From positions 3,480 through 67,479 of the forward strand of contig JBFHWF010000004.1 of the NCBI GenBank assembly GCA_041589175.1: a stretch of 64,000 nucleotides of DNA. The letters run 5' to 3'. The notes below the pieces were generated by a model. That model did no database searches and was not told where the DNA came from. It was given only the letters and a program-made list of their open reading frames with translations. The stretch's first letter is position 1; each line of letters begins with the position of its first letter. Origin of the DNA: Gammaproteobacteria bacterium (GTDB lineage: Bacteria; Pseudomonadota; Gammaproteobacteria; SZUA-229). Shown one piece after another: positions 2,334-34,848 of this stretch. A program made the position numbers and the translations under genes.

Positions 2334-4430
2334 ATGCCGATAGAAAAAAACATAATCATACCTGCCCGGCCCCATGCACTCAAAACCGGCGACCTGCTCT
2401 GTCGCCTGTTACTACTGGCGCTCGTCAGCCTGACACTCACGCCAGGAGCCACAGATGCCAGTAGCAACCCCTATGCCACACCCCTCGCCCATAGCGAGTC
2501 TCCCTTTGAATCACAACGCCAGCTATATCTGCAGGCCATCGAGGCATACGACAAGGGCCACTATCGTCAGTTTGAACGGATATCTACCGGATTACACGAC
2601 TACCCCCTGTATCCCTACCTGGTGTACAAATCCTATCGCCGCCAGCTGAATCAGCTTGATAATTCACAGATTGGCCGTTTTTTACAGGATTACGACGGTA
2701 CCGTTGTATCGGAATGGCTTCGTAAAAAACTGATACAGCACTATGCAAAACAGAAGCAATGGCATGATCTGATCGATATTTATCGCCCCAATAGCGGGGT
2801 TAGTGCCGAGTGCCGTTATCTGGGTGCACTGATTCACACCGGGCAGACACACCTCGCCCTGCCACGCATCAAAAACCTGTGGCTGTCGCCAATCTCCAGA
2901 CCAAAAGAATGTGATCCTGTCTTTAAACTCTGGGAAGACGCAGGTCAAAAATCGACTGCACTGGTATGGAAACGTTTCAAACTTGCTATCCATGATGGCA
3001 ATCGCAAACTGGCTCGCTACCTGGTGCGTTCACTGAGCCCGTCTGATGCAACGATTGCCCAGAAATGGCTGAAACTTCATCACAAGCCCGACAGCTACGA
3101 ACCTGATTCGATTAAAGCCCTTAAGCACGCAGAACAGAGCAGTATTATGCTCAATTGGCTCAGCCGCCTTGCCAGCCGTGATATCGACAAGGCGATCAGT
3201 TACTATCATTCACTGCAAAACTACCCTTTTAGTAATGATCAACGAGCCCAGCTGGTCAGGCGTATCGGCCTGAGTCTTGCGCGCAAGCACCTGCCAGATG
3301 CCGGCATCTGGCTGGATCGTGTGCCCCGTGAATACTATGACCGCCAGGTAAGAGAATGGCGCATTCGAACGGCCATTCGTCAGGGCGACTGGAGCCACGT
3401 CATTTCCAGTATCGATCGACTTAGCCCAGCCGAGCAATCCCAGCATCGCTGGCAATTCTGGTGGGCTTATGCCAATGAAGAGGTTGGCAACACTCCCGAT
3501 GCCCTGGGAATCTATCAGTACCTGGCAACACAACGCAGCTACTACGGCTTTCTGGCCGCTGACCGCATTGGCAGTAATTATAATTTCGAAGACCGGCCAA
3601 TTAACCCAAGCCAGCAACAACTACAATTTATCCGCCAGCAACCCGAGACAATCCGCGCCCGGGAGTTTTACCTGATGGACCAGCAGCTACCCGCACGCCG
3701 TGAATGGCAGCGCCTGCTCAGCCGTCTCGATGCCGAGCAAAAACTGGCCGCCTCCAAACTGGCTCAACTATGGGGATGGCATGACCGTGCCATCATCTCG
3801 ATGGGTCAGACCCGTTACCGGGATGACATCGAATTGCGCTTCCCACTGCACCATGCTAACAAGGTGCACAACTGGTCATCCCAGCATAATATTGACCCGG
3901 CCTGGACATATGCCATTATTCGGCGCGAAAGCGCATTCATTCCCGATGCCCGCTCCTCGGTTGGCGCCATGGGTCTCATGCAGCTTATGCCCGCAACCGC
4001 GCGAAGCATGGCCCGCCATATGAAAATTCGTTATGCTGGCCAGAAAACCCTGCTGAAAAGCAATACCAATATTCGCCTGGGAACCGGCTATCTCGAACGT
4101 ATGCTGGAACGCCTCAACCTTCAGGTACTTGCTACCGCGGCCTATAATGCAGGGCCACACCGGGTAGAAGACTGGCTCCCCGAAAGCCGTACAATGGAAG
4201 CACTACGCTGGATTGAAACGATTCCCTTTACTGAAACCCGTGAATATGTCAGCAATGTACTGGCCTATATCGCCATTTACGAACATCGCATGAAGCGAAA
4301 AGTCACCCGCCTCAGTTCACGCATGCTACCGATCCCGGCCCGTGAACCTGAGCTTGCCACCGATGAAACACCACCAGAAACCCGCCATTCAGTCGAAATT
4401 ATTCAGACCGCAAAAGACAAAAGCAGCTAA
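2334..4430 (+). CDS. slt: soluble lytic murein transglycosylase (Slt70-like)
   Basis: 698 aa with an N-terminal signal, a long alpha-superhelical region, and a C-terminal SLT catalytic domain. The catalytic motifs are RRESAFIPDARSSVGAMGLMQLMPATA and AAYNAGPHRV. Confidence 0.85.
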   Translation: MPIEKNIIIPARPHALKTGDLLCRLLLLALVSLTLTPGATDASSNPYATPLAHSESPFESQRQLYLQAIEAYDKGHYRQFERISTGLHDYPLYPYLVYKSYRRQLNQLDNSQIGRFLQDYDGTVVSEWLRKKLIQHYAKQKQWHDLIDIYRPNSGVSAECRYLGALIHTGQTHLALPRIKNLWLSPISRPKECDPVFKLWEDAGQKSTALVWKRFKLAIHDGNRKLARYLVRSLSPSDATIAQKWLKLHHKPDSYEPDSIKALKHAEQSSIMLNWLSRLASRDIDKAISYYHSLQNYPFSNDQRAQLVRRIGLSLARKHLPDAGIWLDRVPREYYDRQVREWRIRTAIRQGDWSHVISSIDRLSPAEQSQHRWQFWWAYANEEVGNTPDALGIYQYLATQRSYYGFLAADRIGSNYNFEDRPINPSQQQLQFIRQQPETIRAREFYLMDQQLPARREWQRLLSRLDAEQKLAASKLAQLWGWHDRAIISMGQTRYRDDIELRFPLHHANKVHNWSSQHNIDPAWTYAIIRRESAFIPDARSSVGAMGLMQLMPATARSMARHMKIRYAGQKTLLKSNTNIRLGTGYLERMLERLNLQVLATAAYNAGPHRVEDWLPESRTMEALRWIETIPFTETREYVSNVLAYIAIYEHRMKRKVTRLSSRMLPIPAREPELATDETPPETRHSVEIIQTAKDKSS

Positions 4431-14088: not shown

Positions 14089-14424
14089 ATGACTGAAACG
14101 CTCTGTCATATCGACGAAATTAGTGATCCCGGCGCCAAGGGATTCAAACTGAAAAATGGCCGCACCGAGCGCCTGGTTTTTCTGGTAAAAAAAGATGGCC
14201 AGATTTATGGCTATGAAAATGCCTGCCCTCATGCGGGCATTAACCTTGAGTGGCAGGAAGACGACTTTCTCGACATTAACAATGAACATATCCAGTGCTC
14301 GGTTCACGGTGCACTGTTCAAGATTGAAAACGGTGACTGCATGGGTGGCCCGTGCAATGGCGAAGGTCTGACGTCAGTAAAGGTCCAGCTGGACGGTGAC
14401 GGAAATATCCAGCTGCTGGATTAA
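14089..14424 (+). CDS. Rieske [2Fe-2S] domain protein
   Basis: 111 aa with CPHAG...(19 residues)...CSVHGALF, i.e. the CxH...CxxH Rieske ligands. It starts 25 nt after the kinase stop. Confidence 0.8.
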   Translation: MTETLCHIDEISDPGAKGFKLKNGRTERLVFLVKKDGQIYGYENACPHAGINLEWQEDDFLDINNEHIQCSVHGALFKIENGDCMGGPCNGEGLTSVKVQLDGDGNIQLLD

Positions 14425-14427
14425 CCC

Positions 14428-15354
14428 ATGACATCAGCCGGCATGACCCGCCTGTTTCCTCTCTGGGCCGTACTAGCCAGCCTGCTGGCATGGCGGTTCC
14501 CAGAGCTGTTTACCCCACTAAAACCCGCAATCCTGCCGCTGCTGGCCAGCATCATGTTCTGCATGGGACTGAGCCTGCGGTTACAGGATTTTACCCGGGT
14601 ACTACGTATGCCTCGCCTGATTCTTAGCGGGCTGCTGCTGCAGTATTCTATTATGCCACTCACCGCATTTCTGGTTATCCAGCTATTCCAGCTGGATCCC
14701 ATGCTGGCCGTTGGCATGATACTGGTGGGAGCCAGCCCGGGCGGCACTGCCTCCAATGTGATCTGCTATCTGGCAAGGGCTAATGTTGCCCTGTCAATCA
14801 GCCTTACCAGCCTGTCTACGCTGTTATCGATTTTCCTCACACCCTGGCTCAGCTGGTTCTATATCGACGCCAGCATCGATGTCCCGACACTGGACATGCT
14901 AAAGAGCATTCTCATACTGGTAATTGCCCCGGTCAGCCTGGGGGTTCTGCTGAATCAGTATTTCCATTCGCAGGTGCAACGCATCAGCGCCGATCGCCTG
15001 TCGCTACTGGCGGTGATGGCTATCGTGCTGATTATTGCTATTGTTATCGCACTCAATGCGGAACGACTATACAGTCTATCTGCCATGCTGTTACTCGCCG
15101 TGGTCATACACAACCTGACCGGGCTGGCGACGGGGTTTGGCATTGCTCGCCTGCTGGGCGCATCGAGAGCAGATGCACGCACCCTGGCCATCGAGACAGG
15201 CATGCAGAACTCCGGGCTGGCCGTGGCACTGGCTATCAAATATTTTTCACCCGCAGCCGCACTACCGGGTGCAGTCTTTAGCGTATGGCATAACCTGAGC
15301 GGTTCACTACTGGCCAGTTACTGGCGAAGCCCACATCGCAAGCCTTCAGCCTGA
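14428..15354 (+). CDS. bile acid:sodium symporter (BASS) family transporter
   Basis: 308 aa and polytopic, with [16 protein letters not shown] and [14 protein letters not shown] motifs typical of BASS/SBF. It starts 3 nt after the Rieske stop. Confidence 0.8.
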
Positions 15355-23563: not shown

Positions 23564-23968
23564 TTACACCTGGTGTTCTGGTGGAATCACCACCTGCATT
23601 TCGGCAGATTTCCATGCCGCCATGCCGCCATTGATATTCACAATGTTCTTAAAGCCCATCTGCTGTAGCGTACTTGCTGCCATCGCCGAACGACCCGACG
23701 TTGCACAGAAGGTCAGCCATTTCTTGTCACGATCCTGCATATGGGTGTTTCGCCCTGCATACTGTTTATCACAGGCCGCTTCTACCAAACCGCGAGGCAG
23801 ATTAAATGCACCGTCGATCGTGCCCGCATGGTATTCCGCAGGTTCGCGCACATCCAGCACCTGATAACCTTGATCCAGCAGGGCAACAACTTCACTCACA
23901 TCCACTTCCTTGATCTGGGACTTGGCTTCCTTAACAAAGTCCATCAGGGTTTTTTCACTCATAAACAC
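23564..23968 (-). CDS. single-domain rhodanese sulfurtransferase
   Basis: 134 aa with VLDVREPAEYHAGTIDGAFNLP and the active-site loop FCATSGRSAMAA. Confidence 0.8.
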   Translation of the reverse strand: MFMSEKTLMDFVKEAKSQIKEVDVSEVVALLDQGYQVLDVREPAEYHAGTIDGAFNLPRGLVEAACDKQYAGRNTHMQDRDKKWLTFCATSGRSAMAASTLQQMGFKNIVNINGGMAAWKSAEMQVVIPPEHQV

Positions 23969-23973
23969 TTCTC

Positions 23974-24396
23974 TCAGCTTTGATTAGGCGATGCACCAGC
24001 CGATAACTCGGGCATCGCATGAACATATTCGAACTGTTGTTGCTCCAGGATATTTCCACCTTCATCCAGCACGGAAACTGTCCAGATACCCGTCCACCTC
24101 GACATCATATTTTTACTGGACCAGGTACGCCAGCGATCGGCATCCACCTGAAACGAAACTTCAGCCATGAGCTGGCCGTTATACTCCCAACGATGGGTAA
24201 TAGCATGCCCGGCCAGGCCAATCAGTTCGGTGAAGTAGTATACCCGACTGGTATCGTTTTCGATCTGTTGCTGATCGGAAACCGGCTCTTTATTTTCTAT
24301 TGCCGTAGTAAAAACGCTGCGTCCGACACCGATCTCTGCCTGTACCATCTGGCTCGCCAGTGTCATCGTCAACATGACAACTAAGTGTGCTTTCAT
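23974..24396 (-). CDS. periplasmic protein resembling DUF2914
   Basis: Signal peptide (LVVMLTMTLASQMVQA). The motifs RVYYFTEL...H.W..NG, RWRTWSSK and GIWTVSVLDEGGNIL match my memory of the DUF2914 domain. ATG at 24396 is preceded by GGGAGAGAGGAAG. Confidence 0.45.
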   Translation of the reverse strand: MKAHLVVMLTMTLASQMVQAEIGVGRSVFTTAIENKEPVSDQQQIENDTSRVYYFTELIGLAGHAITHRWEYNGQLMAEVSFQVDADRWRTWSSKNMMSRWTGIWTVSVLDEGGNILEQQQFEYVHAMPELSAGASPNQS

Positions 24397-24459
24397 CTTC
24401 CTCTCTCCCTTACCCATTAGCCCGGCTTAGGCCGGGTTCTTTTATATTTTTGCGACGCT

Positions 24460-24996
24460 TTATGCTTCCGCAAGATACTCGTCTTTGAGCTTCACATAAT
24501 GCTGTGCCGAGTACTGCAGAAAATCTTTTTCCTTCTGGCTTAATTCCCTCACCTGCCGTGCAGGAGAGCCCAGATACAGGTATCCACCTTCAAGCACCTT
24601 ACCCGGTGATACCACGCTACCCGCACCGACCATGGCACCTTTCTGTATAACCGCACCGTCGAGAACCACACTGCCCATGCCGATTAACACTTCATCTTCA
24701 ATCGTGCAGGCATGAATCACGGCACCATGTCCGATGGTGACATCGGCACCGATGCTCAGAGGGAAGCCCTCAGGACTCAATGGACCGCTATGAGTGACAT
24801 GAAGCACGGAACCATCCTGCACATTGGTACGTGCTCCGATGCGAATAAAATTCACATCACCTCGGATCGCCACCATAGGCCAGACGGAAACATCATCACC
24901 CAGCACCACGTCACCAATGACGGTCGCCATTGGATCTATATAACAACGCTGCCCCAGTGTAGGCGTGATGTTTTTGAATGAACGAATTGAAGGCAT
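24460..24996 (-). CDS. gamma-class carbonic anhydrase family / hexapeptide-repeat protein (YrdA/PaaY-like)
   Basis: 178 aa of left-handed beta-helix repeats with the characteristic VWPMVAIRGDVNFIRIGARTNVQDGSVLH...IGHGAVIH His ligand pattern. Confidence 0.85.
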   Translation of the reverse strand: MPSIRSFKNITPTLGQRCYIDPMATVIGDVVLGDDVSVWPMVAIRGDVNFIRIGARTNVQDGSVLHVTHSGPLSPEGFPLSIGADVTIGHGAVIHACTIEDEVLIGMGSVVLDGAVIQKGAMVGAGSVVSPGKVLEGGYLYLGSPARQVRELSQKEKDFLQYSAQHYVKLKDEYLAEA

Positions 24997-25049
24997 CGAG
25001 TCTGATTTCCTGTTAACCTGAAAAACGGTGTCTATTTATTAGATTCAGG

Positions 25050-25430
25050 CTACACCGATTTTAAGGCACTATCAATCACCCGCATGAGTGCCTCGGGCGT
25101 ATCCAGTGAGGCAATCTGCTCGGCATCGATAAGACACTCGAACTCACCTTCTCGCTCAATAAAAACCGCCGGAAAACGATCTGTACTACGCCCGGTTTGC
25201 TGTATAAATTCATCGCGATGCAGGAAGCGCATATCGATAGACTGATGTGATAGATAATCCAGCCATGACTGGCGCACTTTGAACAGCCCATGGGTTAATT
25301 TACATAGCTGGCACTGATAGGTGTCCGGCGACAACGCCTTATGGGCAATATCTGCGAGAAGGTTAAATACACCACTATCGGCGTTGTAAACAAAGACCAG
25401 CCGCTGTGTATTGGCAACCGACCCATTCAT
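25050..25430 (-). CDS. hypothetical CxxC protein (thioredoxin-fold-like?), co-transcribed with ArsR-rhodanese
   Basis: 126 aa with LVFVYNADSGVFNLLADIAHKALSPDTYQCQLCKLTHG. Its ATG overlaps the upstream stop as ATGA (25427-25430). The family is not identified. Confidence 0.5.
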   Translation of the reverse strand: MNGSVANTQRLVFVYNADSGVFNLLADIAHKALSPDTYQCQLCKLTHGLFKVRQSWLDYLSHQSIDMRFLHRDEFIQQTGRSTDRFPAVFIEREGEFECLIDAEQIASLDTPEALMRVIDSALKSV

Positions 25431-26083
25431 GTTTCATCATCCACCGGATACCCCGCACTCTTCCATTCGGGGAAACCGTCTTCGAGGCGACTGGCTTCAA
25501 CACCACGCTCGCGCAGTAGCTGTACCGCATCATAGGAAAAAACACAGTGTGGTCCACGACAATACGCTACCACCTGCTGATCGGGATCGAGGGCATCGAG
25601 ACGCTGCTCCAGCTCATCTGGCGGTATATTGATAGCACCCGGCAAGTGGCCTGCCTCAAATTCTTCTTCCGGTCGCACATCAATCACGGTGACCAGACCC
25701 TCTCGCACCCGTTGCAACAGCTCTTCCCGCTGTACTGGCTCCATGGTGTCCTTGGCAGTCAGGTTAAGATTAACCAGATGATTGACCTCTGCCAGCTGCT
25801 GCTCCGAGACCTTCCTCAGCACCCGCATCAGCTCGACGACTTCGTCGCTGGCGATCTGATAATACACCTTAAGGCCCCGCTTATGACTCTGAACCAGCCC
25901 GGCCTGCCGCAGTTGTTGCAGGTGCTGAGACGTGTTGGCAACACTCAGGCCGGAAATTTTCGCAAGGTCATCCACACTTCGCTCGGCCTGCGCCAGATAT
26001 TCCAGCATCTGCAAACGATTACCATGACTAAGCGCCTTACCGACACGGGCAAACTGGCTGAACAGGTCCTGTTTAAAACTCAT
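25427..26083 (-). CDS. ArsR/SmtB-family transcriptional regulator fused to a rhodanese domain
   Basis: N-terminal winged HTH (LSHGNRLQMLEYL...SVDDLAKISGLSVANTSQHLQQLRQAGLV). C-terminal rhodanese (VIDVRPEEEFEAGHLPGAINIP ... VVAYCRGPHCVFS). Confidence 0.85.
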   Translation of the reverse strand: MSFKQDLFSQFARVGKALSHGNRLQMLEYLAQAERSVDDLAKISGLSVANTSQHLQQLRQAGLVQSHKRGLKVYYQIASDEVVELMRVLRKVSEQQLAEVNHLVNLNLTAKDTMEPVQREELLQRVREGLVTVIDVRPEEEFEAGHLPGAINIPPDELEQRLDALDPDQQVVAYCRGPHCVFSYDAVQLLRERGVEASRLEDGFPEWKSAGYPVDDET

Positions 26084-26121
26084 CTTTATATCGATCCCCT
26101 CTGGTACCTCAATTTTAAGCC

Positions 26122-26150
26122 TTGACTCGGGCTTTGCCTATGACTATTCT
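26122..26150 (+). promoter_or_regulatory. putative sigma70 promoter of the six-gene organoarsenical operon
   Basis: TTGACT (26122-26127), a 17-nt spacer, then TATTCT (26145-26150). It lies immediately upstream of the palindrome at 26152-26175. Confidence 0.4.
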
Positions 26151-26151
26151 A

Positions 26152-26175
26152 CTATTCAATTATTCAATTGAATAG
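26152..26175. promoter_or_regulatory. inverted repeat, candidate ArsR-family operator
   Basis: CTATTCAATT-ATTC-AATTGAATAG has perfect 10-bp arms and a 4-bp spacer. It lies between the divergent arsR-like gene and the operon. A TATAAT on the minus strand (26179-26184) flanks the other side. Confidence 0.5.
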
Positions 26176-26274
26176 TGTATTATATTTGAATGCGTCGGTT
26201 GAATTTTCAGGGTTGATACTGTCTCACCAGAAACATTCATCCGAGCAACAATTGAATTCAAGCGGAACCACTCT

Positions 26275-27156
26275 ATGCTGGAACAGTTTATTATCGAAAA
26301 CGAGAGCAACCTCAGAATGGGGGTATTCCTCGGCATGCTGGTGCTTATGGGCCTGTGGGAGGTGCTGGCACCTCGCCGTGAACGCCGCTTATCTCGTCTG
26401 CTGCGCTGGAGCAATAATCTGGGTCTGGTAGTCCTCAACAGCACCCTGCTTCGCCTCCTGTTTCCTGCAGCCGCCGTCGGGATGGCGATGTTTGCCCAGC
26501 AGCACGGCTGGGGGCTATTCAACTGGCTGAACTGGCCTCACCTGCTGGAAGTCGTACTGGCGATTGTTATCCTTGACCTGGTGATTTACCTGCAACATGT
26601 ACTGGTACATGCGGTACCGCTACTCTGGCGACTTCACCGAGTTCACCACGCCGACCCGGACTACGATGTCACCACTGGCATACGCTTTCACCCGATTGAG
26701 ATCATTGTATCCATGCTCATCAAGTTCGCAGCCATTGCAGCGCTTGGCCCTGCCGTGCTGGCGGTGATTATTTTCGAAGTACTGCTAAATGGTATGGCCA
26801 TGTTCAACCATGGCAATGTGCGCTTACCTCGGCGCCTTGACCAGGTGCTGCGCCTGTTTGTGGTAACACCAGACATGCACCGTGTACATCACTCAATTGA
26901 AGACGATGAAACCAATAGCAATTTTGGTTTTAACCTGAGCCTGTGGGACCGACTGTTCGGTACCTATCGTGCCCAGCCCCGTAAGGGCCATGTCGATATG
27001 CAGATTGGCATCCGTCAGTTTGACCAGCCTCGACAGGTGAGCTGGCTATCCGGCCTGTTGATACTCCCCTTCCTTGGACGCAGCGACGGGTACGCCATCA
27101 ATCGCAGAAACTGGGCTGGTAAAGATGCGGAAACAGGAGAGACACACCATGAATAA
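26275..27156 (+). CDS. fatty acid hydroxylase / sterol desaturase family membrane protein
   Basis: Polytopic, with the three His boxes of the di-iron FA hydroxylase superfamily: HVLVH, HRVHHAD, HRVHHS. Confidence 0.8.
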   Translation: MLEQFIIENESNLRMGVFLGMLVLMGLWEVLAPRRERRLSRLLRWSNNLGLVVLNSTLLRLLFPAAAVGMAMFAQQHGWGLFNWLNWPHLLEVVLAIVILDLVIYLQHVLVHAVPLLWRLHRVHHADPDYDVTTGIRFHPIEIIVSMLIKFAAIAALGPAVLAVIIFEVLLNGMAMFNHGNVRLPRRLDQVLRLFVVTPDMHRVHHSIEDDETNSNFGFNLSLWDRLFGTYRAQPRKGHVDMQIGIRQFDQPRQVSWLSGLLILPFLGRSDGYAINRRNWAGKDAETGETHHE

Positions 27157-28114
27157 GCTAGCACTCCGGCTCCTGCTGCTCAGTGCATTACTACTGTTGA
27201 TTGCACTAGGTTTTATCTATCGAGAACATATCGAACTTTCCGACATAACGTCGCAGGTCGAACAGGCCGGTGCAATAGCACCCGCTATCTTTATACTGAT
27301 TTATATTGGCAGTACCGTACTTTTTCTTCCCGGTTCAATTTTAACGCTGCTTGGCGGTGCAATGTTTGGGCCGGTACTGGGCACCCTTTACAGTCTCTGT
27401 GGTGCAACACTGGGCGCCATACTGGCTTTTATCATTGCTCGCTATCTGGCCTCTGACTGGGTAAGCCGTAAATCACAAGGACGCCTTAAGCAGCTTATCA
27501 GTGGCGTCGAGAATGAGGGCTGGCGCTTTGTGGCATTTACTCGCCTGGTTCCATTATTTCCTTTTAACCTGCTGAATTATGCACTGGGCTTAACTCGAAT
27601 TCGCCTGCTGGACTACAGTATCGCCACATTTATTTTTATGCTGCCCGGTGCAGCTGCCTATACCTATCTGGGTTATATGGGCAGAGAACTGGCCACTGGA
27701 GGTGAGGACATGATCCAGAAAATACTACTCGGCCTTGCACTGCTCGCCTGTGTTGCATTTTTGCCACGTTTTATCAGCCAGCTGAGGCGGGTTGATATGC
27801 TAGATGTACAATCCCTTAGACAGCAACTGAAAGACTCGCCCGATATGCTGTTACTGGATGTACGCACGGAAGCCGATTACCATGGCGAACAGGGGCATAT
27901 TGAACAGTCGGTTCTGATTCCCCTTGAAGAACTCGCCACCAGCACTGACTCGATAGAACACTATCGAGACAAACCGGTCGTCACGATTTGCCGAACAGAT
28001 CGGCGCTCTTCAGAAGCAGCCCGGTTATTAAAAAACCTTGGTTTTAGACAGGTGCAGGTTACACGTAGGGGCATGACAGACTGGATTGCAAACGGCTACC
28101 CTGTCACTCGATAA
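27149..28114 (+). CDS. TVP38/TMEM64 (DedA/SNARE-associated) family membrane protein fused to a C-terminal rhodanese domain
   Basis: Membrane part with STVLFLPGSILTLLGGAMFG and RLVPLFPFNLLNYALG. C-terminal rhodanese LLLDVRTEADYHGEQGHI...VVTICRTDRRSSEAA. ATG at 27149 (AGGAGA SD) overlaps the upstream stop by 8 nt. Confidence 0.8.
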   Translation: MNKLALRLLLLSALLLLIALGFIYREHIELSDITSQVEQAGAIAPAIFILIYIGSTVLFLPGSILTLLGGAMFGPVLGTLYSLCGATLGAILAFIIARYLASDWVSRKSQGRLKQLISGVENEGWRFVAFTRLVPLFPFNLLNYALGLTRIRLLDYSIATFIFMLPGAAAYTYLGYMGRELATGGEDMIQKILLGLALLACVAFLPRFISQLRRVDMLDVQSLRQQLKDSPDMLLLDVRTEADYHGEQGHIEQSVLIPLEELATSTDSIEHYRDKPVVTICRTDRRSSEAARLLKNLGFRQVQVTRRGMTDWIANGYPVTR

Positions 28115-28154
28115 TTTCCAGATCAGCAGACGCTCAGAAAAAAGTAAAAACATT

Positions 28155-29117
28155 ATGCGCGATACCAAACCACTGCTACTAAAAAGCAACTTCCCCACGT
28201 TACATCGTGGGCGGATCGATACACTTCAGCTTAACCTGGGTTACACCTGTAACCAGCGATGCCTGCATTGCCATGTTAATGCAGGGCCCACACGACACGA
28301 ACAGATGTCGCGAAAAACAATGCAGGACATACTGGAATATGCAGAACAGAATGCCATAAAGCAGTTTGATCTAACCGGAGGAGCCCCCGAACTTAACAGT
28401 GAATTTCGCTGGCTGGTACAGCAGGCCTGGGAACGCAATATTCATATCATCGATCGCTGCAACCTGACCATACTCTCAGAGCCTGGCCAGCATACGCTAG
28501 CTAACTTTCTTGCACTGCATCAGGTGGAAATCGTGGCTTCACTGCCCTGTTACAGCGAAGACAATGTAGACAAACAACGGGGCAAGGGTGTTTTTAATCG
28601 CAGTATCGAAGGTATTAAAGCACTCAACGCACTGGGCTATGGCAGAGCAGGTTCGGGCCTGGTCATTAATCTCATGTATAACCCGGCGGGACCGTTTCTA
28701 CCTCCGGCCCAGCAACAACTGGAAGCTGACTATAGAGAGAAGCTCAAACAGGAGTATGGCCTTGTCTTCAATCATCTGTATACCCTGACAAATATGCCAA
28801 TTATGCGCTTTGGCAGCACCTTACTGAGCCATGGTGAGTTCGAGGACTATATAGCCCTACTGAAACAATCTCATAATCCTGAAAATCTCGATACCGTAAT
28901 GTGCAGAAACCTTATCAGTATTGACTGGCAAGGCTATGTCTATGATTGTGATTTTAATCAGATGCTCGACATGCCAAGCCAGTGTTCAACATCCGAGCGT
29001 ACACATATTTCACAGCTAAACCCTGATACACTGACTGATAGCCCCGTTCAGGTTGCTGATCACTGTTATGGATGCACAGCCGGCTGCGGCTCAAGCTGTG
29101 GTGGCGCACTGAGTTAA
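28155..29117 (+). CDS. arsS: radical SAM / Cys-rich domain protein, ArsS-type (arsenosugar biosynthesis)
   Basis: Radical SAM CxxxCxxC (GYTCNQRCLHCHV) with the C-terminal Cys-rich tail ...VADHCYGCTAGCGSSCGGALS. That tail is typical of the radical SAM/Cys-rich (seleno)protein family as I recall it. Confidence 0.8.
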   Translation: MRDTKPLLLKSNFPTLHRGRIDTLQLNLGYTCNQRCLHCHVNAGPTRHEQMSRKTMQDILEYAEQNAIKQFDLTGGAPELNSEFRWLVQQAWERNIHIIDRCNLTILSEPGQHTLANFLALHQVEIVASLPCYSEDNVDKQRGKGVFNRSIEGIKALNALGYGRAGSGLVINLMYNPAGPFLPPAQQQLEADYREKLKQEYGLVFNHLYTLTNMPIMRFGSTLLSHGEFEDYIALLKQSHNPENLDTVMCRNLISIDWQGYVYDCDFNQMLDMPSQCSTSERTHISQLNPDTLTDSPVQVADHCYGCTAGCGSSCGGALS

Positions 29118-29119
29118 GT

Positions 29120-29824
29120 ATGAAATCTGCTCGCATATCATTCATTATCCCCTGCCTAAATGAGGCTGGGCATATTGTAAGCACGCTAACGCCGCTTCAA
29201 CGACTGCGCAAATCAGGACATGAAATTATCCTGGTTGATGGTGGCAGCCATGACAAGACCACTGAACTCGCCAGCACGCTAGTCGATACACTTATTACCA
29301 GTCACACAGGCCGAGCAAAGCAGATGAATGCCGGTGCCGCTGAAGCCAGTGGTGATATCTTATGTTTTGTGCATGCGGATACGCTGTGCCCTGATAATAT
29401 CGATCAACTCCTGAGCCGAGATCTTTGCCAGTCCAGAAATGTCTGGGGGCGATTCGATATTCGTTTGAGTAGTAATCGCAAGGTGTTCCGGATCATCGAA
29501 TGGTTTATAAACAAACGTTCCTGCCTGACTGGGATTGCCACTGGCGATCAGGGCATATTCATATGTCGCAACATATTTAAACGTATTAATGGTTATGCCG
29601 ACATTCCACTCATGGAAGACATCGAGATCAGCAAACGACTCCGTAGAATTTCTGCTCCGCTCTGTATCAGACATCACAAGCTAGTCACCTCCAGCCGTCG
29701 CTGGGAATCCAGGGGCATTCTGAGAACCGTATTACTCATGTGGTCACTCCGTCTGCGATATTTTTTTGGCGAATCAGAGCATGCTCTGGCACAGGCTTAC
29801 CAGAATCATGGCACACAAAAATAA
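29120..29824 (+). CDS. GT2-type glycosyltransferase of the ArsS-associated family (TIGR04283-like, from memory)
   Basis: ISFIIPCLNEAGHI, ILVDGGSHDKT and FVHADT (DxD-like) are GT2 hallmarks. It starts 3 nt after the arsS stop. Confidence 0.75.
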   Translation: MKSARISFIIPCLNEAGHIVSTLTPLQRLRKSGHEIILVDGGSHDKTTELASTLVDTLITSHTGRAKQMNAGAAEASGDILCFVHADTLCPDNIDQLLSRDLCQSRNVWGRFDIRLSSNRKVFRIIEWFINKRSCLTGIATGDQGIFICRNIFKRINGYADIPLMEDIEISKRLRRISAPLCIRHHKLVTSSRRWESRGILRTVLLMWSLRLRYFFGESEHALAQAYQNHGTQK

Positions 29825-30542
29825 ACAACACCTCATACTGTTTGCTCGAGCACCAGAGCCTGGCAAGTGCAAGACTCGACTGATTCCCCTGCTCGGCAAA
29901 AATGGTGCTGCCGAATTACATCGCAAATTAATTACTCACTGCCTGCAGCAAATCGCGACCTTAGAAGACACCGACATAAGCCTGTATATTGATGAGCAGC
30001 CTGAGCACCCGTTTTTCCGTGAAATACAGCAACAACATCCTGTTACAGTTAAACAACAGCAGGGATTCGACCTGGGTGAACGCATGTATATTGCCATGCG
30101 CGATTCCCTGAAATCCTATGACAAATGTGTTTTAATCGGCAGTGACTGTCCGGAGATGAATGCCGACTACATCAACCAGGCATTTACAAAGCTCGACGAT
30201 CATGATCAGGTGCTTGGACCCGCGAGCGATGGTGGCTACGTCCTGATCGGCCTGCAGAAAATCAATCGCATGCTTTTCCAGAACGTTAACTGGAGCCATG
30301 AAACCGTGTTGCAGCAAAGTCTGTATAATAGCGAGCAAACAGGATACCGTCATACGCTGTTAACAACTCTGTGGGATATTGACGAACCACGAGATTATAT
30401 TCAGCATCACAAACGCATCTGGCAACTCCTGAACACGCACAGAACCAATGGAGATTACTATGGACCACCAACAGGCCGACAAGATACGCAACCAGGTAAG
30501 AGACAGTTACAGCAAGGTCGCAGAAGCCAGCAATCAGGGTGA
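29808..30542 (+). CDS. DUF2064 / CofC-like transferase of the ArsS-associated family (TIGR04282-like, from memory)
   Basis: LILFARAPEPGKCKTRL matches the DUF2064 N-terminal motif, and GSDCPE and DGGYVLIGL are also present. The start overlaps the upstream gene by 17 nt. The low-complexity C-terminal tail overlaps arsM by 83 nt. Confidence 0.7.
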   Translation: MAHKNKQHLILFARAPEPGKCKTRLIPLLGKNGAAELHRKLITHCLQQIATLEDTDISLYIDEQPEHPFFREIQQQHPVTVKQQQGFDLGERMYIAMRDSLKSYDKCVLIGSDCPEMNADYINQAFTKLDDHDQVLGPASDGGYVLIGLQKINRMLFQNVNWSHETVLQQSLYNSEQTGYRHTLLTTLWDIDEPRDYIQHHKRIWQLLNTHRTNGDYYGPPTGRQDTQPGKRQLQQGRRSQQSG

Positions 30543-31266
30543 CTGCTGCGGCGAAGTCAGTAGCTGTTGTGGTGTTTCCGATGACTCACAGATCAATCAG
30601 CTAATTTCAACACGCCTGGGTTACAGCAGTGACGACCTCGAAAAGGTTCCCGGCGGTGCCGACATGGGACTGGGCTGTGGCAACCCCAGAGCCATTGCAT
30701 CACTGCGAGAAGGTGAAGTCGTTATTGATCTTGGTTCTGGTGGCGGCTTTGATGCTTTTCTCGCTGCACATGAGGTTGGCTCTGAAGGGCATGTTATCGG
30801 GGTTGATATGACACCTCAAATGATTAGCAAGGCCCGTAACAATGCAACTCGTGGGAACTATACACAGGTAGAATTCCGACTCGGTGAAATTGAACATCTA
30901 CCTGTCGCGGACAATCATGCCGATGTCATTATCTCGAATTGCGTCATCAATTTATCCCCCGATAAGCGACAGGTTTTCAAAGAAGCTTACCGTGTATTAA
31001 AACAGGGTGGTCGACTCGCGATCTCCGATATCGTCACCAGCGCTCCCCTGCCGGATAATATTTTAAATGACAGCCAGATGTACTCTGCCTGCATTAGTGG
31101 TGCATCCAGTATCAACACACTGGAAGAAATAATAGCTGCAGCCGGCTTCACTGAAATCATGATCACACCAAAAGATGAAAGCCGTGATTTTATCCGAGAC
31201 TGGGCGCCGGGTTCTGACGTAGAAAACTATATTGTTTCAGCACATATACAGGCCATTAAAGCCTGA
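30460..31266 (+). CDS. arsM: arsenite S-adenosylmethionine methyltransferase (ArsM-like)
   Basis: N-terminal VRDSYSKVAEA...GDCCGEVSSCCG Cys pairs and the SAM motif VIDLGSGGGFD. ISNCVINLSP and YSACISGAS are Cys positions characteristic of ArsM. GGAG sits 6 nt before the ATG at 30460. Confidence 0.85.
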   Translation: MDHQQADKIRNQVRDSYSKVAEASNQGDCCGEVSSCCGVSDDSQINQLISTRLGYSSDDLEKVPGGADMGLGCGNPRAIASLREGEVVIDLGSGGGFDAFLAAHEVGSEGHVIGVDMTPQMISKARNNATRGNYTQVEFRLGEIEHLPVADNHADVIISNCVINLSPDKRQVFKEAYRVLKQGGRLAISDIVTSAPLPDNILNDSQMYSACISGASSINTLEEIIAAAGFTEIMITPKDESRDFIRDWAPGSDVENYIVSAHIQAIKA

Positions 31267-31322
31267 CAGGGGTTGCCATATAAGTTAGCTGGTTCGATGC
31301 AGCTTAGTGGGCTGCGGCCTTT

Positions 31323-33287
31323 TCATGAATTCTTTAGCGGCACTTTCAATGAAAAGCGCGCCCCCTGGCCTATGCCCTGACTACTCGCAGCAATCTCTCC
31401 TCCCAGCTCTTTTGCCATTAAGGCACTGTGGTGCAATCCATAACCATGACCACCTTCCCGCTTTTTAAAACCGAACTCAAACAGGCGCCCAAGATCAACT
31501 GAGTCTATACCTATCCCATTATCCTCAACGTAAAATTCCAGCATCTCCTCCTGCATACACATGCCAACTGTCATTTTTCTATTCTCGACTTCATTATTCA
31601 TCAGCGCATATTTTGCATTACTTATGAAATTCACCAGCACCTGTATTACTTTGTGCTTATCTAACGTCACTTGTGGATTCACCGCATAGCTTACCGTTAG
31701 ATCAATTCGATTATTATCCAGCCCAGATCGATTGATTTTTATAGCATCATCAAATAACTCACCGGCATTTATCGTTTCAATAACACCGGAGCTTCCCGCA
31801 TACGATTGCTGCATGGATATAATTGTTTTGATGTGTTCTATATTATTCCCAAGATAATCCAGCTCCTTCACCTGATTTTTTCTCTCTTCCTGTATCTGCT
31901 CAGATAGCTTTTCAATATAGGGAATTACGTATTGACCTCTTTCATCATTTTCGATGAAGTTACAGATATTGGCTTTATTTTCAGACAGTAATTGTGCGAT
32001 TTTCTCTATGTTTGCAGCCTTACAGTTTTTAATCTGCTCCTTCAATACAGAAGTCGACACATTAATACTGTTAAGCACATTACCCACATTATGCAGAACC
32101 CCACTGGCAACCTCCGCCATACCAGCACTGCGCGCAATATTCGCTATCTTGGTATTTAGATCTTTTAACTCTTCCGTTCTTTCATGCACCTTGTTCTCAA
32201 GGTTTTCATTCATTTCCTTAAGTGCATTCTGGAAAATTTCACGCTCGGTAACATCGCGCACCACCATCTGCACCAGCTTTTTACCATCAATATCTATCGC
32301 CGTTATTTCCACATCAACGGAAATTTCTTCATTATTAAAATCATTAAAGAACCAGTGATATCTATTTTTACGCCCTACTTCTGCTCGATCAATCGCTACA
32401 TTTACCGTAACCTGATTGTCTTCCACTTCATCCACGCGAAAGCGTAACAGGTATTTCTCACCTAGTTCTTTTAGTTTACTGAATGTTGCGACTGAAAACA
32501 TTTTCAACGCATTATCATTCGCATCAACAATCAGGCCATCTTCAATTACCAGAACCGCATCCATTGAACCTTCGATTAGCGCTTTAAATTTTTTACCTTC
32601 GCTTTCTATCTGTAAGGCCTGCTCAGAAATTCGCCGTATAATATATGCACTGCTGAGTATCATCAGAATGATCACAATAATACCCAGCATTACGACAGTG
32701 CGTGATGCAGCCTCCTGTGACATTCTGGCAGCTTTGACCATCTGCGCATTCTTATCTTTCTGTATATCCAGCATACGGTCGAGAATTTCGAACACACGGG
32801 TCTGAAATTCCAGAGCCTTTTCTATGGCTCCAAAAGCAGATTCTTGATCTCCCTCTTGCATGAAATCATACAAACGGTATTGCCATGTAACCGCTTCGAC
32901 CGATATATCACGCTGTTCCTCCAGTAACCTTATCTCCTCTTCATCCAGGTTCAGGGCTTTGTATTTTTCCCGGGCCTCAAGAAACACTCCACCCTGCTCG
33001 CGGAACTTCATCCACTGATCATCCTTAAGAAACTCATCTTCCAGCTGCAAGCTCATAATCAGGTGAAGATTTCGCTCACGAGCAGAGATACGCATATCAT
33101 AGAGGTAGCCCGTTTTTACATCTGAGGCCTGCACCAGATCCTCAATCTGCTCCCTGAGCGAGTCCAGCTCATTCAACGCAACCAGGCTTAATACCGCAAT
33201 TAACAGGCATGATAAAAAAAGCCCTGCCATCAAGGCAGTTCGTATTGTTTGTATTGCGGGGGCGCCGACAGACTGTACTAAACTCAT
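31323..33287 (-). CDS. sensor histidine kinase (periplasmic/4-helix sensor, PAS, HisKA-like, HATPase)
   Basis: Two TM segments, then PAS (GSMDAVLVIEDGLIVDANDNALKMF). H-box region AGMAEVASGVLHNVGNVLNS, followed by the ATPase N box (NFISNAKYAL) and G boxes (DNGIGI, GHGYGLH). No cognate response regulator is adjacent. Confidence 0.85.
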   Translation of the reverse strand: MSLVQSVGAPAIQTIRTALMAGLFLSCLLIAVLSLVALNELDSLREQIEDLVQASDVKTGYLYDMRISARERNLHLIMSLQLEDEFLKDDQWMKFREQGGVFLEAREKYKALNLDEEEIRLLEEQRDISVEAVTWQYRLYDFMQEGDQESAFGAIEKALEFQTRVFEILDRMLDIQKDKNAQMVKAARMSQEAASRTVVMLGIIVIILMILSSAYIIRRISEQALQIESEGKKFKALIEGSMDAVLVIEDGLIVDANDNALKMFSVATFSKLKELGEKYLLRFRVDEVEDNQVTVNVAIDRAEVGRKNRYHWFFNDFNNEEISVDVEITAIDIDGKKLVQMVVRDVTEREIFQNALKEMNENLENKVHERTEELKDLNTKIANIARSAGMAEVASGVLHNVGNVLNSINVSTSVLKEQIKNCKAANIEKIAQLLSENKANICNFIENDERGQYVIPYIEKLSEQIQEERKNQVKELDYLGNNIEHIKTIISMQQSYAGSSGVIETINAGELFDDAIKINRSGLDNNRIDLTVSYAVNPQVTLDKHKVIQVLVNFISNAKYALMNNEVENRKMTVGMCMQEEMLEFYVEDNGIGIDSVDLGRLFEFGFKKREGGHGYGLHHSALMAKELGGEIAASSQGIGQGARFSLKVPLKNS

Positions 33288-33420: not shown

Positions 33421-34776
33421 TTATCGCATTGTCACCAGTTCTTCCGAGCTGGTTGGGTGAATCGCTACCGTATCATCGAAATCCCTCTTGGTCGCCCCCA
33501 TACGGATGGCTACGGCAAATCCCTGTAACATTTCATCACAGCCCGGGCCAATAATATGACATCCAACCACTTTTTCCTGAGCACCAAGACATATCAGTTT
33601 CATTGCGGTGGGAACATCATGACGCGTCATCGAGTTATACATGGCAGTAAATCGGGTCTGGTACACCTTGACTGCATCACCGTGTTCTTTTCGTGCCTCT
33701 TCTTCAGTCATACCTACCGTACCGATTGGAGGGTGGCTAAACACCACGGTCGGTATTAGCTCGTAGCTCAGGTGACGATCTGCCTGGTTATTGTAGAGGC
33801 GATCAGCCAGTCGACGACCTGCGGCAATCGCAACTGGTGTGAGAGGTTCACGGCCAGTCACATCACCCAGCGCAAATATATTGTCGACATTGGTATTCTG
33901 ATAGGTGTCACAGAGTATAAACCCCTGTTCATCCACCTCTAGTCCTGCCGCTTCAAGGTTCATACCACGGGTATTGGGATGACGTCCGATCGCCCAGATC
34001 AGCGCATTAAAACCACAATTACGGTTACCCTTATCATCAATGAGTGTCAGTGTTCCATCATCTTCCTTGATAACTTCGGTAATCTGGGTTTGCGCAATAA
34101 TATCTACACCCTGGTCCATCATCTCTTCCAGCAGGGTTTCACGCAACATATGGTCAAAGGTTCTCAGCAGGTGTCGCTTACGCAGGTACATATACACATC
34201 GCTACCCAATGCATTTAACACACCCGCAACCTCTACGGCGATATAACCTGAGCCGACAATTGCAACCTTCGCCGGGCACTCCTCAAACTCAAAGAAACCA
34301 TCCGAACTCACACCATGCTCCGCGCCTGGAATATCCGGTATGGTGGGTGTTGTACCGGGTGATACGGCAATATGTTTCGCGGTAAATTGCTTGCCATCAA
34401 TATCGATGGTATGCGCATCGATAAAAGATGCAAATCCCTGCAGTTCGTCGATATTCGAATCTGCCAGGTAGTTGTGATACCAGCTGTTAATACCGTTGAT
34501 ATAGTTCTCACGTTTGGTTACCAGGTGCTTCCAGTCAAAGCCCCGGTTTTCGAGATCGAAACCATAATCCTTCGCATCTTCAATAGCATGTGCCAGATTT
34601 GCGCCAAACCACATCACTTTCTTGGGTACACAGCCAACATTTACACAGGTGCCTCCGATCTTACCCATTTCTACGACTGCACATTTGGCACCATAGGTCG
34701 CTGCCCGCTCAGCCACTGAGAGCCCACCACTCCCGCCGCCAATCGCAATCAAGTCATAATCGTATTTTTTTGCCAT
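33421..34776 (-). CDS. gor: glutathione-disulfide reductase
   Basis: [15 protein letters not shown] motif, redox-active [13 protein letters not shown], a second [11 protein letters not shown](P) motif, and the C-terminal [13 protein letters not shown] chose the ATG at 34776 (MAKKYDYD). Confidence 0.9.
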
Positions 34777-34848
34777 GATAAACCCTGTGTTGGAATCTTC
34801 AGGTCGGGTAATATACCAGCACACCGAACACGGGAACAGTCACCAAAC

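Follow-up and report, generated by a model that had tools for sequence, protein, structure and literature searches.

The stretch of DNA analysed here (the window) spans 64,000 nucleotides of contig JBFHWF010000004.1 from a gammaproteobacterial assembly (GCA_041589175.1; positions 3,480 to 67,479 of the forward strand), and between its positions 25050 and 31266 lies a cluster of eight genes in two divergent sets (Table 1). The six genes on the + strand are tightly packed, with those for a membrane hydroxylase of the fatty-acid-hydroxylase superfamily (FAH) and for a TVP38/DedA-type VTT membrane protein with a C-terminal rhodanese (VTT-rhodanese) co-directional with arsS, two transferase genes (GT2 and DUF2064) and arsM. 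The - strand carries genes for an ArsR-rhodanese fusion and for a small protein with a CxxC motif (the CxxC protein). As set out below, we consider that this may be a composite locus for an arsenosugar-type organoarsenical.

All eight open reading frames (ORFs), together with the motifs and spacings given in a preliminary description of this DNA, were reproduced from the ORF translations, including the 191-bp divergent spacer and the successive junctions of the six-gene set (8-nt overlap, 40-nt gap, 2-nt gap, 17-nt overlap and 83-nt overlap). The ATGA overlap between the arsR-rhodanese stop and the CxxC start can be read directly in the sequence, as can the 40-nt gap ahead of arsS, and the motifs HVLVH, HRVHH (twice), CNQRCLHC and CYGCTAGCGSSCGGALS are present in the translations. 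The family assignments likewise all held in profile searches. The locus is chromosomal, its base composition is without sign of a foreign island, and the window genes around it are housekeeping genes, syntenic with the genome of the Galathealinum brachiosum endosymbiont. No Rfam-type RNA element or riboswitch was found in positions 24500-31800.

Table 1. Positions of genes and putative signals at the locus, numbered from the first letter of the window.
Feature	Position	Strand	Description
CxxC protein, 126 aa	25050..25430	-	unnamed family; from ORF scan
ArsR-rhodanese (ArsR-Rhd)	25427..26083	-	ArsR/SmtB winged helix with C-terminal rhodanese
Promoter-like hexamers	26112..26150	both	+ TTGACT-17-TATTCT 26122-26150; - TAGGCA-17-TAAAAT 26140-26112
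Candidate operator ATTCAA-N8-TTGAAT	26154..26173	none	perfect inverted repeat in divergent promoter region
FAH	26275..27156	+	membrane di-iron hydroxylase/desaturase, fatty-acid-hydroxylase superfamily
VTT-rhodanese (VTT-Rhd)	27149..28114	+	TVP38/DedA-type VTT membrane protein, C-terminal rhodanese with catalytic cysteine
ArsS	28155..29117	+	radical SAM with Cys-rich DUF3641 tail
GT2 glycosyltransferase	29120..29824	+	TIGR04283 family
DUF2064/CofC-like transferase	29808..30542	+	TIGR04282 family
ArsM, As(III) S-adenosylmethionine methyltransferase	30460..31266	+	alternative ATG at 30448
Terminator-like hairpin 3' of arsM	31298..31316	+	

The arsenosugar core

Family membership of the window proteins was judged by the curated cut-offs of NCBIfam and the thresholds of Pfam. 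ArsS exceeds the cut-off of the equivalog model TIGR04167 by a wide margin (462.7 bits against 300), and Pfam identifies Radical_SAM and DUF3641 at 192 bits. The protein has the CX3CX2C motif CNQRCLHC and the Cys-rich CYGCTAGCGSSCGG, with cysteines conserved across an alignment of 37 sequences, and its best match in a scan of species-representative genomes is 64% identical. Both transferases encoded directly downstream of arsS belong to families associated with it: GT2 scores 259.9 bits with TIGR04283 (cut-off 182), and the DUF2064 protein, which also matches PDB 3cgx (a 'putative nucleotide-diphospho-sugar transferase'), scores 218.1 bits with TIGR04282 (cut-off 134). The preliminary description had held that scores below trusted cut-offs for ArsS and the two transferases would speak against an arsenosugar-type locus; all three proteins lie above them. 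At the C-terminus of the DUF2064 ORF, about 48 aa form a low-complexity tail that falls outside the family model and overlaps the arsM start by 83-95 nt (30448-30542).

The earlier assignment of the last gene to the ArsM type stands, with one refinement. Its product passes the cut-off for arsenite methyltransferase (NF008823, 356.4 bits against 263), and the cysteines in its motifs GCGNP, SNCVINL and CISGA align with the arsenite-binding ones of the solved structures 5evj and 4fr0, but it falls far short of the 'arsenosugar biosynthesis ArsM' model (NF038099, 104.9 bits against 400) and is instead of the short NF008823 type.

ArsM yields dimethylarsenite, which ArsS joins to the 5'-deoxyadenosyl group of S-adenosylmethionine (SAM) to give 5'-deoxy-5'-dimethylarsinoyl-adenosine; both enzymes have been characterised in a cyanobacterium. 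The window resembles the ArsM/ArsS pathway of Synechocystis sp. PCC 6803, and the TIGR04167-TIGR04282-TIGR04283 neighbourhood named 'arsenosugar biosynthesis' by NCBI, in having ArsS, TIGR04283 and TIGR04282 proteins above cut-off and an arsenite methyltransferase within one operon with arsS. The ArsS-GT2-DUF2064 core that it contains is also present in about 70-75% of the informative proteobacterial loci surveyed below. In contrast to the Synechocystis pathway, the window ArsM does not belong to the 'AsSugarArsM' model, and the host looks, judged by its nearest relatives (L170; loci used for comparison carry handles of this kind), like a non-photosynthetic gammaproteobacterium of the sulfur-oxidiser type. 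A further difference from the arsenosugar core is that the window adds four genes, those for FAH, VTT-rhodanese, the CxxC protein and ArsR-rhodanese. In Synechocystis, arsM is slr0303 (PMC4010505) and a TVP38 homologue is slr0305 (PMC3836016); these locus tags hint that arsM and TVP38 may lie close together there.

Accessory proteins and a candidate operator

FAH belongs to the fatty-acid-hydroxylase superfamily (Pfam FA_hydroxylase, 103.2 bits against a threshold of 31), with His boxes HVLVH, HRVHH and HRVHH. It shares with OlsE and the sterol desaturases of this superfamily three or four transmembrane segments, the HX3H and HX2HH boxes and the Pfam match. It is nevertheless not an OlsE ornithine-lipid hydroxylase (equivalog score 96.9 bits against a cut-off of 475), forming instead a highly conserved subfamily of its own, whose genes are either partnered with VTT-rhodanese or close to arsS. 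Identity within this subfamily is 65-77% for the 120 best matches, out of more than 8,000; its members carry no annotation beyond 'sterol desaturase family' and belong to a siboglinid endosymbiont, to Thiolapillus and to Sulfuricellaceae. No relative of FAH among solved structures was detectable by sequence.

The VTT-rhodanese protein matches Pfam VTT_dom (92.8 bits, threshold 33.9) as well as Rhodanese, and its homologues number more than 7,800, thousands of them about 60-70% identical to it; their JGI names ('YdjX (TVP38/TMEM64)') are the basis for its assignment to COG0398. The rhodanese loop ICRTD[RK][RK]S (ICRTDRRS in the window) is invariant in 26 homologues, and its length is that of the sulfurtransferase type, not the arsenate-reductase/Cdc25 type. 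The catalytic cysteine of the active-site loop is kept in both fused rhodaneses, that of VTT-rhodanese and that of ArsR-rhodanese, and a rough analysis of hydropathy and positive-inside charge places the rhodanese domain of VTT-rhodanese and the His boxes of FAH on the cytoplasmic side.

A published survey of DedA proteins considers COG0398, the VTT subfamily, to consist of putative flippases of phospholipids rather than transporters of ions, and notes flavoprotein fusions in TVP38-like COG0398 and rhodanese fusions in another DedA subfamily, both left unexplained (PMC10127716). COG0398 proteins fused or adjacent to MerA-like oxidoreductases are of the same VTT subfamily as the window protein (43-46% identity); both kinds have a cytoplasmic thiol/sulfur-redox partner and both occur near arsS, arsM and the transferases. 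They differ in that the partner here is a single-Cys rhodanese, a carrier of sulfane sulfur, rather than an NAD(P)H flavoprotein; for the flavoprotein fusion, the published survey assigns no function and draws no link to arsenic (PMC10127716). There is a further likeness to the rhodanese-containing CoA-disulfide/persulfide reductases (PDB 3icr, 8a56, 3nta), where oxidoreductase and rhodanese cooperate on sulfane sulfur: the rhodanese of these enzymes matches that of the window regulator in sequence, and a stand-alone flavoprotein of the same class lies near VTT-rhodanese in 8 loci. Here, by contrast, oxidoreductase and rhodanese are alternative partners of VTT and are not fused to each other.

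The CxxC protein matches nothing in Pfam or NCBIfam, and its 663 homologues are all unnamed or 'hypothetical', yet the family has the invariant motifs FVYNADSG, AHK, SPxTYxCxLCxLTH and FLHRDE. An AlphaFold2 model of moderate confidence (pLDDT 75.6) gives thioredoxins as its top Foldseek matches throughout, all weak (E about 1e-3, TM 0.4-0.5), and the CxxC motif falls within a poorly modelled loop that follows helix 1 (residues 37-48, pLDDT <50), not at the N-terminus of that helix as is canonical for thioredoxins. A thioredoxin-like fold is thus weakly supported by the model.

ArsR-rhodanese is a member of the ArsR/SmtB family (NF033788, 83.3 bits against a cut-off of 55), with Pfam domains HTH_5 and Rhodanese. 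Its only two cysteines, C175 and C180, lie in the rhodanese domain (YCRGPHC) and are 100% conserved in 40 homologues, while residues 1-170, and with them the helix-turn-helix (HTH) domain, contain none. As the DNA-binding domain is without cysteine, and the ArsR fold has no cysteine cluster such as the CVC of helix 3, a canonical arsenite-sensing ArsR can be ruled out. BigR and SqrR sense via two cysteines inside the ArsR fold; these positions are missing from the HTH domain here, and the score with the BigR model (42.7 bits) is well under the cut-off of 155, so the protein was also rejected as a member of this group. Sensing through the rhodanese pair C175/C180 is possible. Both fused rhodaneses score far under the cut-off of NCBIfam rhoda_near_glyco (NF045521).

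In sequence, the HTH domain matches the structures of YgaV, SqrR and BigR, while matches to the rhodanese include YgaP, the membrane rhodanese that accompanies YgaV in E. coli, and the corresponding domains of persulfide reductases. The likeness to the BigR, SqrR and YgaV-YgaP operons extends to the arrangement, with an ArsR-type winged helix encoded divergently, probably autoregulated and with a palindromic operator, and to the targets, which encode membrane proteins with sulfur-handling domains. Unlike BigR and SqrR, the window regulator has its only cysteines in the CRGPHC pair of the rhodanese, and would therefore be a variant with a fused sensor domain.

The candidate operator ATTCAA-N8-TTGAAT has no other match in the 64-kb window. 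Of 38 orthologous intergenic regions, 22 carry the box unchanged and 33 carry it with at most two mismatches, and three loci carry the symmetric variant ATTCTA-N8-TAGAAT, a paired change as expected for a dimer-binding site. The fetched loci, 2.04 Mb in all, contain 48 boxes, 47 of them at the 5' ends of arsR-rhd, FAH, VTT or TauE genes. On this distribution, the palindrome behaves like an operator of ArsR-rhodanese and is our candidate for it. In one locus (L023) CxxC and ArsR-rhodanese genes are followed, across a perfect box, by an ORF, arsS and arsM, with neither FAH nor VTT, and in L098 and L112 an arsM of the window type adjoins ArsR-rhodanese; these three loci connect the regulator with arsenic genes, in addition to its connection with the membrane pair.

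Promoter-like sites from a consensus scan flank the operator, the -10 element on the + strand ending 3 nt before it, but such sites are weak evidence, since the 11 found in the region (8.7 expected) are no commoner than in shuffled sequence. None of the junctions between the six + strand genes has a terminator-like site, and one hairpin follows arsM. These signals are compatible with a single six-gene transcript.

Recurrence of the modules in other genomes

Two surveys were made of the surroundings of related genes. Survey A was anchored on ArsS in species-representative genomes (L005-L084) and Survey B on VTT-rhodanese in metagenomes (L085-L164), with neighbouring genes counted by family-specific phmmer searches. 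Each comprises the 80 best-matching loci of at least 576-599 confirmed relatives, so the fractions describe relatives of the window proteins, not all diversity. In Survey A, 47 loci from distinct species, with at least 5 kb upstream and at least 6 kb downstream of arsS, were informative. The GT2 gene is near arsS in 35 of the 47 and the DUF2064 gene in 33; a VTT-domain gene is present in 30, and in 24 it forms one ORF with a pyridine-nucleotide disulfide oxidoreductase, which NCBIfam places near MerA, lipoamide dehydrogenase and glutathione reductase. Window-type ArsM, ArsR-rhodanese and the CxxC protein are each near arsS in 0 of the 47. A protein of ~340-360 aa without Pfam or NCBIfam match lies directly 3' of arsS in 13 of the 47 proteobacterial loci (e.g. 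L006 10863-11954; also L173 9996-11015), and 9 of the 47 have a DUF547 protein, in most cases placed between the VTT::flavoprotein and GT2 (e.g. L006 about 14340-14960); the window cluster has neither.

Survey B shows how closely the membrane genes are bound to the regulator. The order FAH - VTT-rhodanese is kept in 58 of the 61 loci where it could be tested, and ArsR-rhodanese is divergent from FAH in 38 of 49. By these gene orders, ArsR-rhodanese with the divergent FAH - VTT-rhodanese pair is an autonomous, very common and tightly conserved unit, putatively under control of the operator. Neighbours of units that lack arsS are, besides the sulfur genes named below, class-I methyltransferases, a stand-alone MerA-like flavoprotein, DUF1499, and a GltD-like Fe-S flavoprotein with multihaem cytochromes. 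The GltD-like Fe-S/NAD(P)H flavoprotein (~780-800 aa) was seen beside FAH-VTT-rhodanese in L003 (12841-19034), L097 (1107-6164), L112 (12173-14542) and L171 (2541-4910), followed by multihaem cytochromes in L003 and L097; L089 has a multihaem cytochrome alone. In L097, where this block separates the operator from arsS, the co-directional array opens after the operator with a gene for a stand-alone 222-aa VTT protein (320-988) and has VTT-rhodanese at its far end, and thus holds two VTT paralogues in one putative regulon.

The preliminary description had held that a lack of conserved linkage of the hydroxylase and VTT genes with arsS/arsM elsewhere, together with separate transcription, would speak against its reading; such linkage was found, in at least four gene orders. 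The unit and arsS are collinear as in the window in L085, L088, L163, L168 and L170 and divergent in L003/L087; in L097 arsS-GT2-DUF2064-CxxC lies upstream of FAH-VTT-rhodanese, and in L118 genes for a flavoprotein and a methyltransferase intervene before arsS, which is 6 kb downstream. Loci with and without arsS are interleaved on a neighbour-joining tree of VTT-rhodanese, which points to repeated gain or loss of the adjacency. Judged from order and phylogeny, the link of FAH-VTT-rhodanese to arsS is not accidental.

Related VTT and FAH genes also accompany arsS in clusters of other organisation. Neptunomonas marina has ArsS - VTT::flavoprotein - FAH - GT2 - DUF2064 (FAH 46% and VTT domain 43% identical to those of the window), and plasmid pTs417 of Thiodictyon syntrophicum has GT2 - sterol desaturase - ArsS - TIGR04282 (FAH 34% identical). 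On a plasmid of Acinetobacter portensis the order is ArsS - 'bifunctional TVP38/TMEM64 family protein/FAD-dependent oxidoreductase' - DUF547 - TIGR04283 - TIGR04282 - methyltransferase, and alongside this cluster are genes for S-methyl-5'-thioadenosine phosphorylase (MTAP) and a sterol desaturase 57% identical to the window FAH. In the cyanobacterium Pseudanabaena galeata, plasmid pPg_02 (L174 4455-9972) carries TVP38 - 'mercuric reductase' - arsenosugar ArsM - TVP38 - ArsS, the second TVP38, between arsM and arsS, being 46% identical to the window VTT domain; this operon puts the partnership of VTT and thiol-redox protein beside arsM/arsS in a member of the phylum from which the characterised ArsM and ArsS come. 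MTAP genes lie in or beside plasmid-borne arsS clusters of Burkholderia glumae (L173 2162-3043) and A. portensis (L175 15429-16292), and in 4 of the 47 Survey A loci (L031, L037, L052, L065); the window cluster has none. Thioredoxin/CcdA genes adjoin the arsS clusters of Burkholderia and Acinetobacter.

Within both surveys the CxxC gene was found only in loci carrying arsS, so that it tracks the arsS module rather than the regulator. A strict restriction to arsS was overturned by look-ups anchored on the CxxC protein itself: in L166 the gene is 5 kb from a FAH-VTT unit without arsS, and in L165 (Calditrichia) it occurs with neither arsS nor the unit.

All eight genes recur with the same flanking genes in public assemblies, L168 and L170 (Galathealinum brachiosum endosymbiont), although in L170 no gene is called in the 1.4-kb stretch that holds both transferases. 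In L168 GT2 and DUF2064 are fused into one 452-aa protein (2752-4110). Beyond the CxxC gene, the window (23564-24996, - strand) encodes a hexapeptide-repeat protein, a DUF2914 protein and a single-domain rhodanese, a trio found in the same order beside the cluster in L168 and L170 and followed by aroE and hemB. On the other side, L168 has a phage-type integrase directly beyond arsM (472-1872) where the window has a PAS histidine kinase (31323-33287), which indicates a variable downstream boundary. A glutathione-reductase-like pyridine-nucleotide disulfide oxidoreductase encoded 2 kb past arsM (33421-34824, - strand) is of the same enzyme class as the VTT fusion partner in other arsS clusters, but is probably a housekeeping protein, as it is not conserved beside the cluster in L168 or L170.

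A possible route to modified arsenoribosides

How are the accessory genes related to the arsenosugar core? We favour, at about even odds (roughly 0.5), a composite locus that would provide a regulated pathway to an arsenosugar-type organoarsenical, namely a membrane-associated and/or thiolated arsenoriboside, the chemistry of which is inferred. Under this proposal the adenine of the ArsS product would be removed by phosphorolysis to give arsenoribose-1-phosphate, a step suggested by the MTAP genes in several other arsS clusters, and the DUF2064 and GT2 proteins would activate the arsenoribose and transfer it to an acceptor. The acceptor or the product may be a membrane lipid hydroxylated or otherwise tailored by FAH, with the VTT protein moving the amphipathic arsenical, or a trivalent precursor, in the membrane; that acceptor or product is membrane-associated is suggested because a hydroxylase of lipid type and a membrane protein of scramblase type keep recurring. 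Because rhodanese, MerA-like flavoprotein, CxxC protein and thioredoxin/CcdA recur beside these genes, we also envisage thiol or redox control of arsenic, in which the cytoplasmic domain of the VTT protein (rhodanese here, MerA-like flavoprotein elsewhere) and the CxxC protein would keep arsenic thiol-bound, reduced or thiolated. ArsR-rhodanese would repress at the operator until sulfane sulfur or a trivalent arsenical modifies the two cysteines of its rhodanese and so releases it.

A number of observations weigh against this proposal. FAH is near arsS in only 4 of the 47 informative Survey A loci. Conversely, where a VTT-rhodanese locus extends at least 2 kb downstream, arsS is present in 10 of 43 cases, and where both flanks reach at least 3 kb, in 5 of 19; units lacking it adjoin sulfur genes (DsrE-like, TauE, SQR-like flavoprotein). 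Such absences are soft, since most comparison loci are metagenome or metagenome-assembled genome (MAG) fragments and contig ends intervene. A weak promoter-like site just upstream of arsS (28086-28115) makes separate transcription of arsS, from an internal start, possible. The roles given to GT2 and DUF2064 come solely from gene neighbourhood, and a lipid acceptor, a flippase role and thiolation of arsenic go beyond the backing of published chemistry. A lipid-linked or thiolated product is in our view a reasonable, unproven inference. As the unit is without neighbouring arsS in about three quarters of loci, the locus is not one dedicated eight-gene system. The suggestion in the preliminary description that tight coupling reflects one longer pathway therefore survives only in part: the linkage of FAH and VTT to arsS/arsM does recur, but the unit is self-contained.

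The arsS-less majority would be explained directly if two separate modules merely lie side by side, with FAH-VTT-rhodanese being a membrane response to sulfane or reactive sulfur in sulfur oxidisers, comparable to the YgaV/YgaP or BigR operons and not specific to arsenic. The arsenosugar genes would then have landed downstream, perhaps sharing the promoter as sulfide and arsenic co-occur. The neighbours of the unit in other loci (DsrE-like, TauE, SQR-like, MerA-like, and multihaem or Fe-S redox genes) fit such a reading, as does the resemblance of the regulator to the persulfide sensors SqrR, BigR and YgaV in its HTH domain and to YgaP and persulfide reductases in its rhodanese. So does a second perfect box found 3' of VTT-rhodanese and before TauE in L108 (11196-11215) and L113 (3916-3935), which suggests that the TauE-DUF1499-DsrE genes of these loci belong to the same regulon. 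Yet adjacency to arsS arose repeatedly and in differing orders, VTT and FAH of the same subfamilies are embedded in regulator-less arsS clusters with other orders and in another phylum, and regulator and operator are found directly on arsS-arsM in L023 and beside arsM in L098 and L112. We regard separate modules as the main rival explanation, less likely than the composite pathway. Chance juxtaposition inherited in one lineage, without any shared function or regulation, draws on the fact that L168 and L170 share the flanking genes of the window, such that recurrence is partly shared ancestry; given several distinct gene orders, the scatter of arsS-linked loci on the VTT-rhodanese tree and the recurrence of the families across phyla, it is the explanation we disfavour most and is hardly credible.

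Two further explanations retain a function in metalloid handling. The cluster might be a device for detoxification or export, where VTT exports trivalent arsenic that is methylated or bound to thiols (or imports inorganic or thio-arsenic), FAH tunes lipids for tolerance and the soluble product is a common arsenosugar or methylarsenical. A connection of DedA/VTT proteins with the handling of metals and metalloids has been made in papers on selenite resistance and indium extrusion, the MerA-like partner points to a soft metal(loid) bound to thiols as the substance handled, and ArsM alone accompanies the unit in L098 and L112. This is unlikely, however, as the DedA survey takes COG0398 VTT for a putative phospholipid flippase and not an ion transporter (PMC10127716), enzymes of the FAH superfamily act on lipids, and in several genomes VTT and FAH lie between arsS and the transferases, which fits a pathway step better than generic efflux. 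The element could also be selenium or tellurium instead of arsenic, with rhodanese or flavoprotein reducing and carrying the chalcogen, and methyltransferase and radical SAM protein alkylating it. Related NCBIfam models do include selenoprotein variants of ArsS, ArsM-like methyltransferases and rhodanese, TehB-like and other methyltransferases recur beside the unit, and the reference list of the DedA survey cites a paper linking DedA to selenite resistance (PMC10127716). Against this, the cysteines that bind arsenite are conserved in the window ArsM, which also scores above the arsenite methyltransferase cut-off, and ArsS is far above its equivalog cut-off, so that we consider a chalcogen substrate very improbable.

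Parts of the composite arsenic locus that we favour were already known, as its ArsS/transferase/ArsM core is recognised by automatic annotation and the whole cluster is public, under generic names, in L168 and L170. In the full-text literature searched on arsenosugar genes and related family accessions, no role has been assigned to the accessory genes. Against that literature, what appears to be new is the systematic tie of a partnership between VTT and a thiol domain, and of a specific FAH subfamily, to arsS/arsM, together with ArsR-rhodanese and its operator and the CxxC family.

To our knowledge, enzymes have been assigned for the first two steps only (ArsM and ArsS) of arsenosugar and arsenolipid biosynthesis. 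The TVP38-type protein with a thiol/sulfur domain, the FAH subfamily, the CxxC protein and, in other clusters, MTAP are candidates for the late steps from the adenosyl intermediate to arsenosugars and arsenolipids, and since such candidate genes are carried by the cultured Neptunomonas marina, Thiodictyon syntrophicum, Acinetobacter portensis, Burkholderia glumae and Pseudanabaena galeata, knockouts are feasible. A bolder version, which we put forward as speculation, is that VTT with its thiol/sulfur domain, FAH and the CxxC protein might constitute the missing late-step machinery for arsenolipid-like and/or thiolated arsenoribosides, from cyanobacteria to sulfur-oxidising bacteria of the symbiont type, and that ArsR-rhodanese might represent a new class of ArsR which senses via a fused rhodanese. 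More generally, our comparisons suggest a first physiological context for the DedA-flavoprotein and DedA-rhodanese fusions, and define a common candidate regulator-operator pair in sulfur-oxidising bacteria, an animal endosymbiont included.

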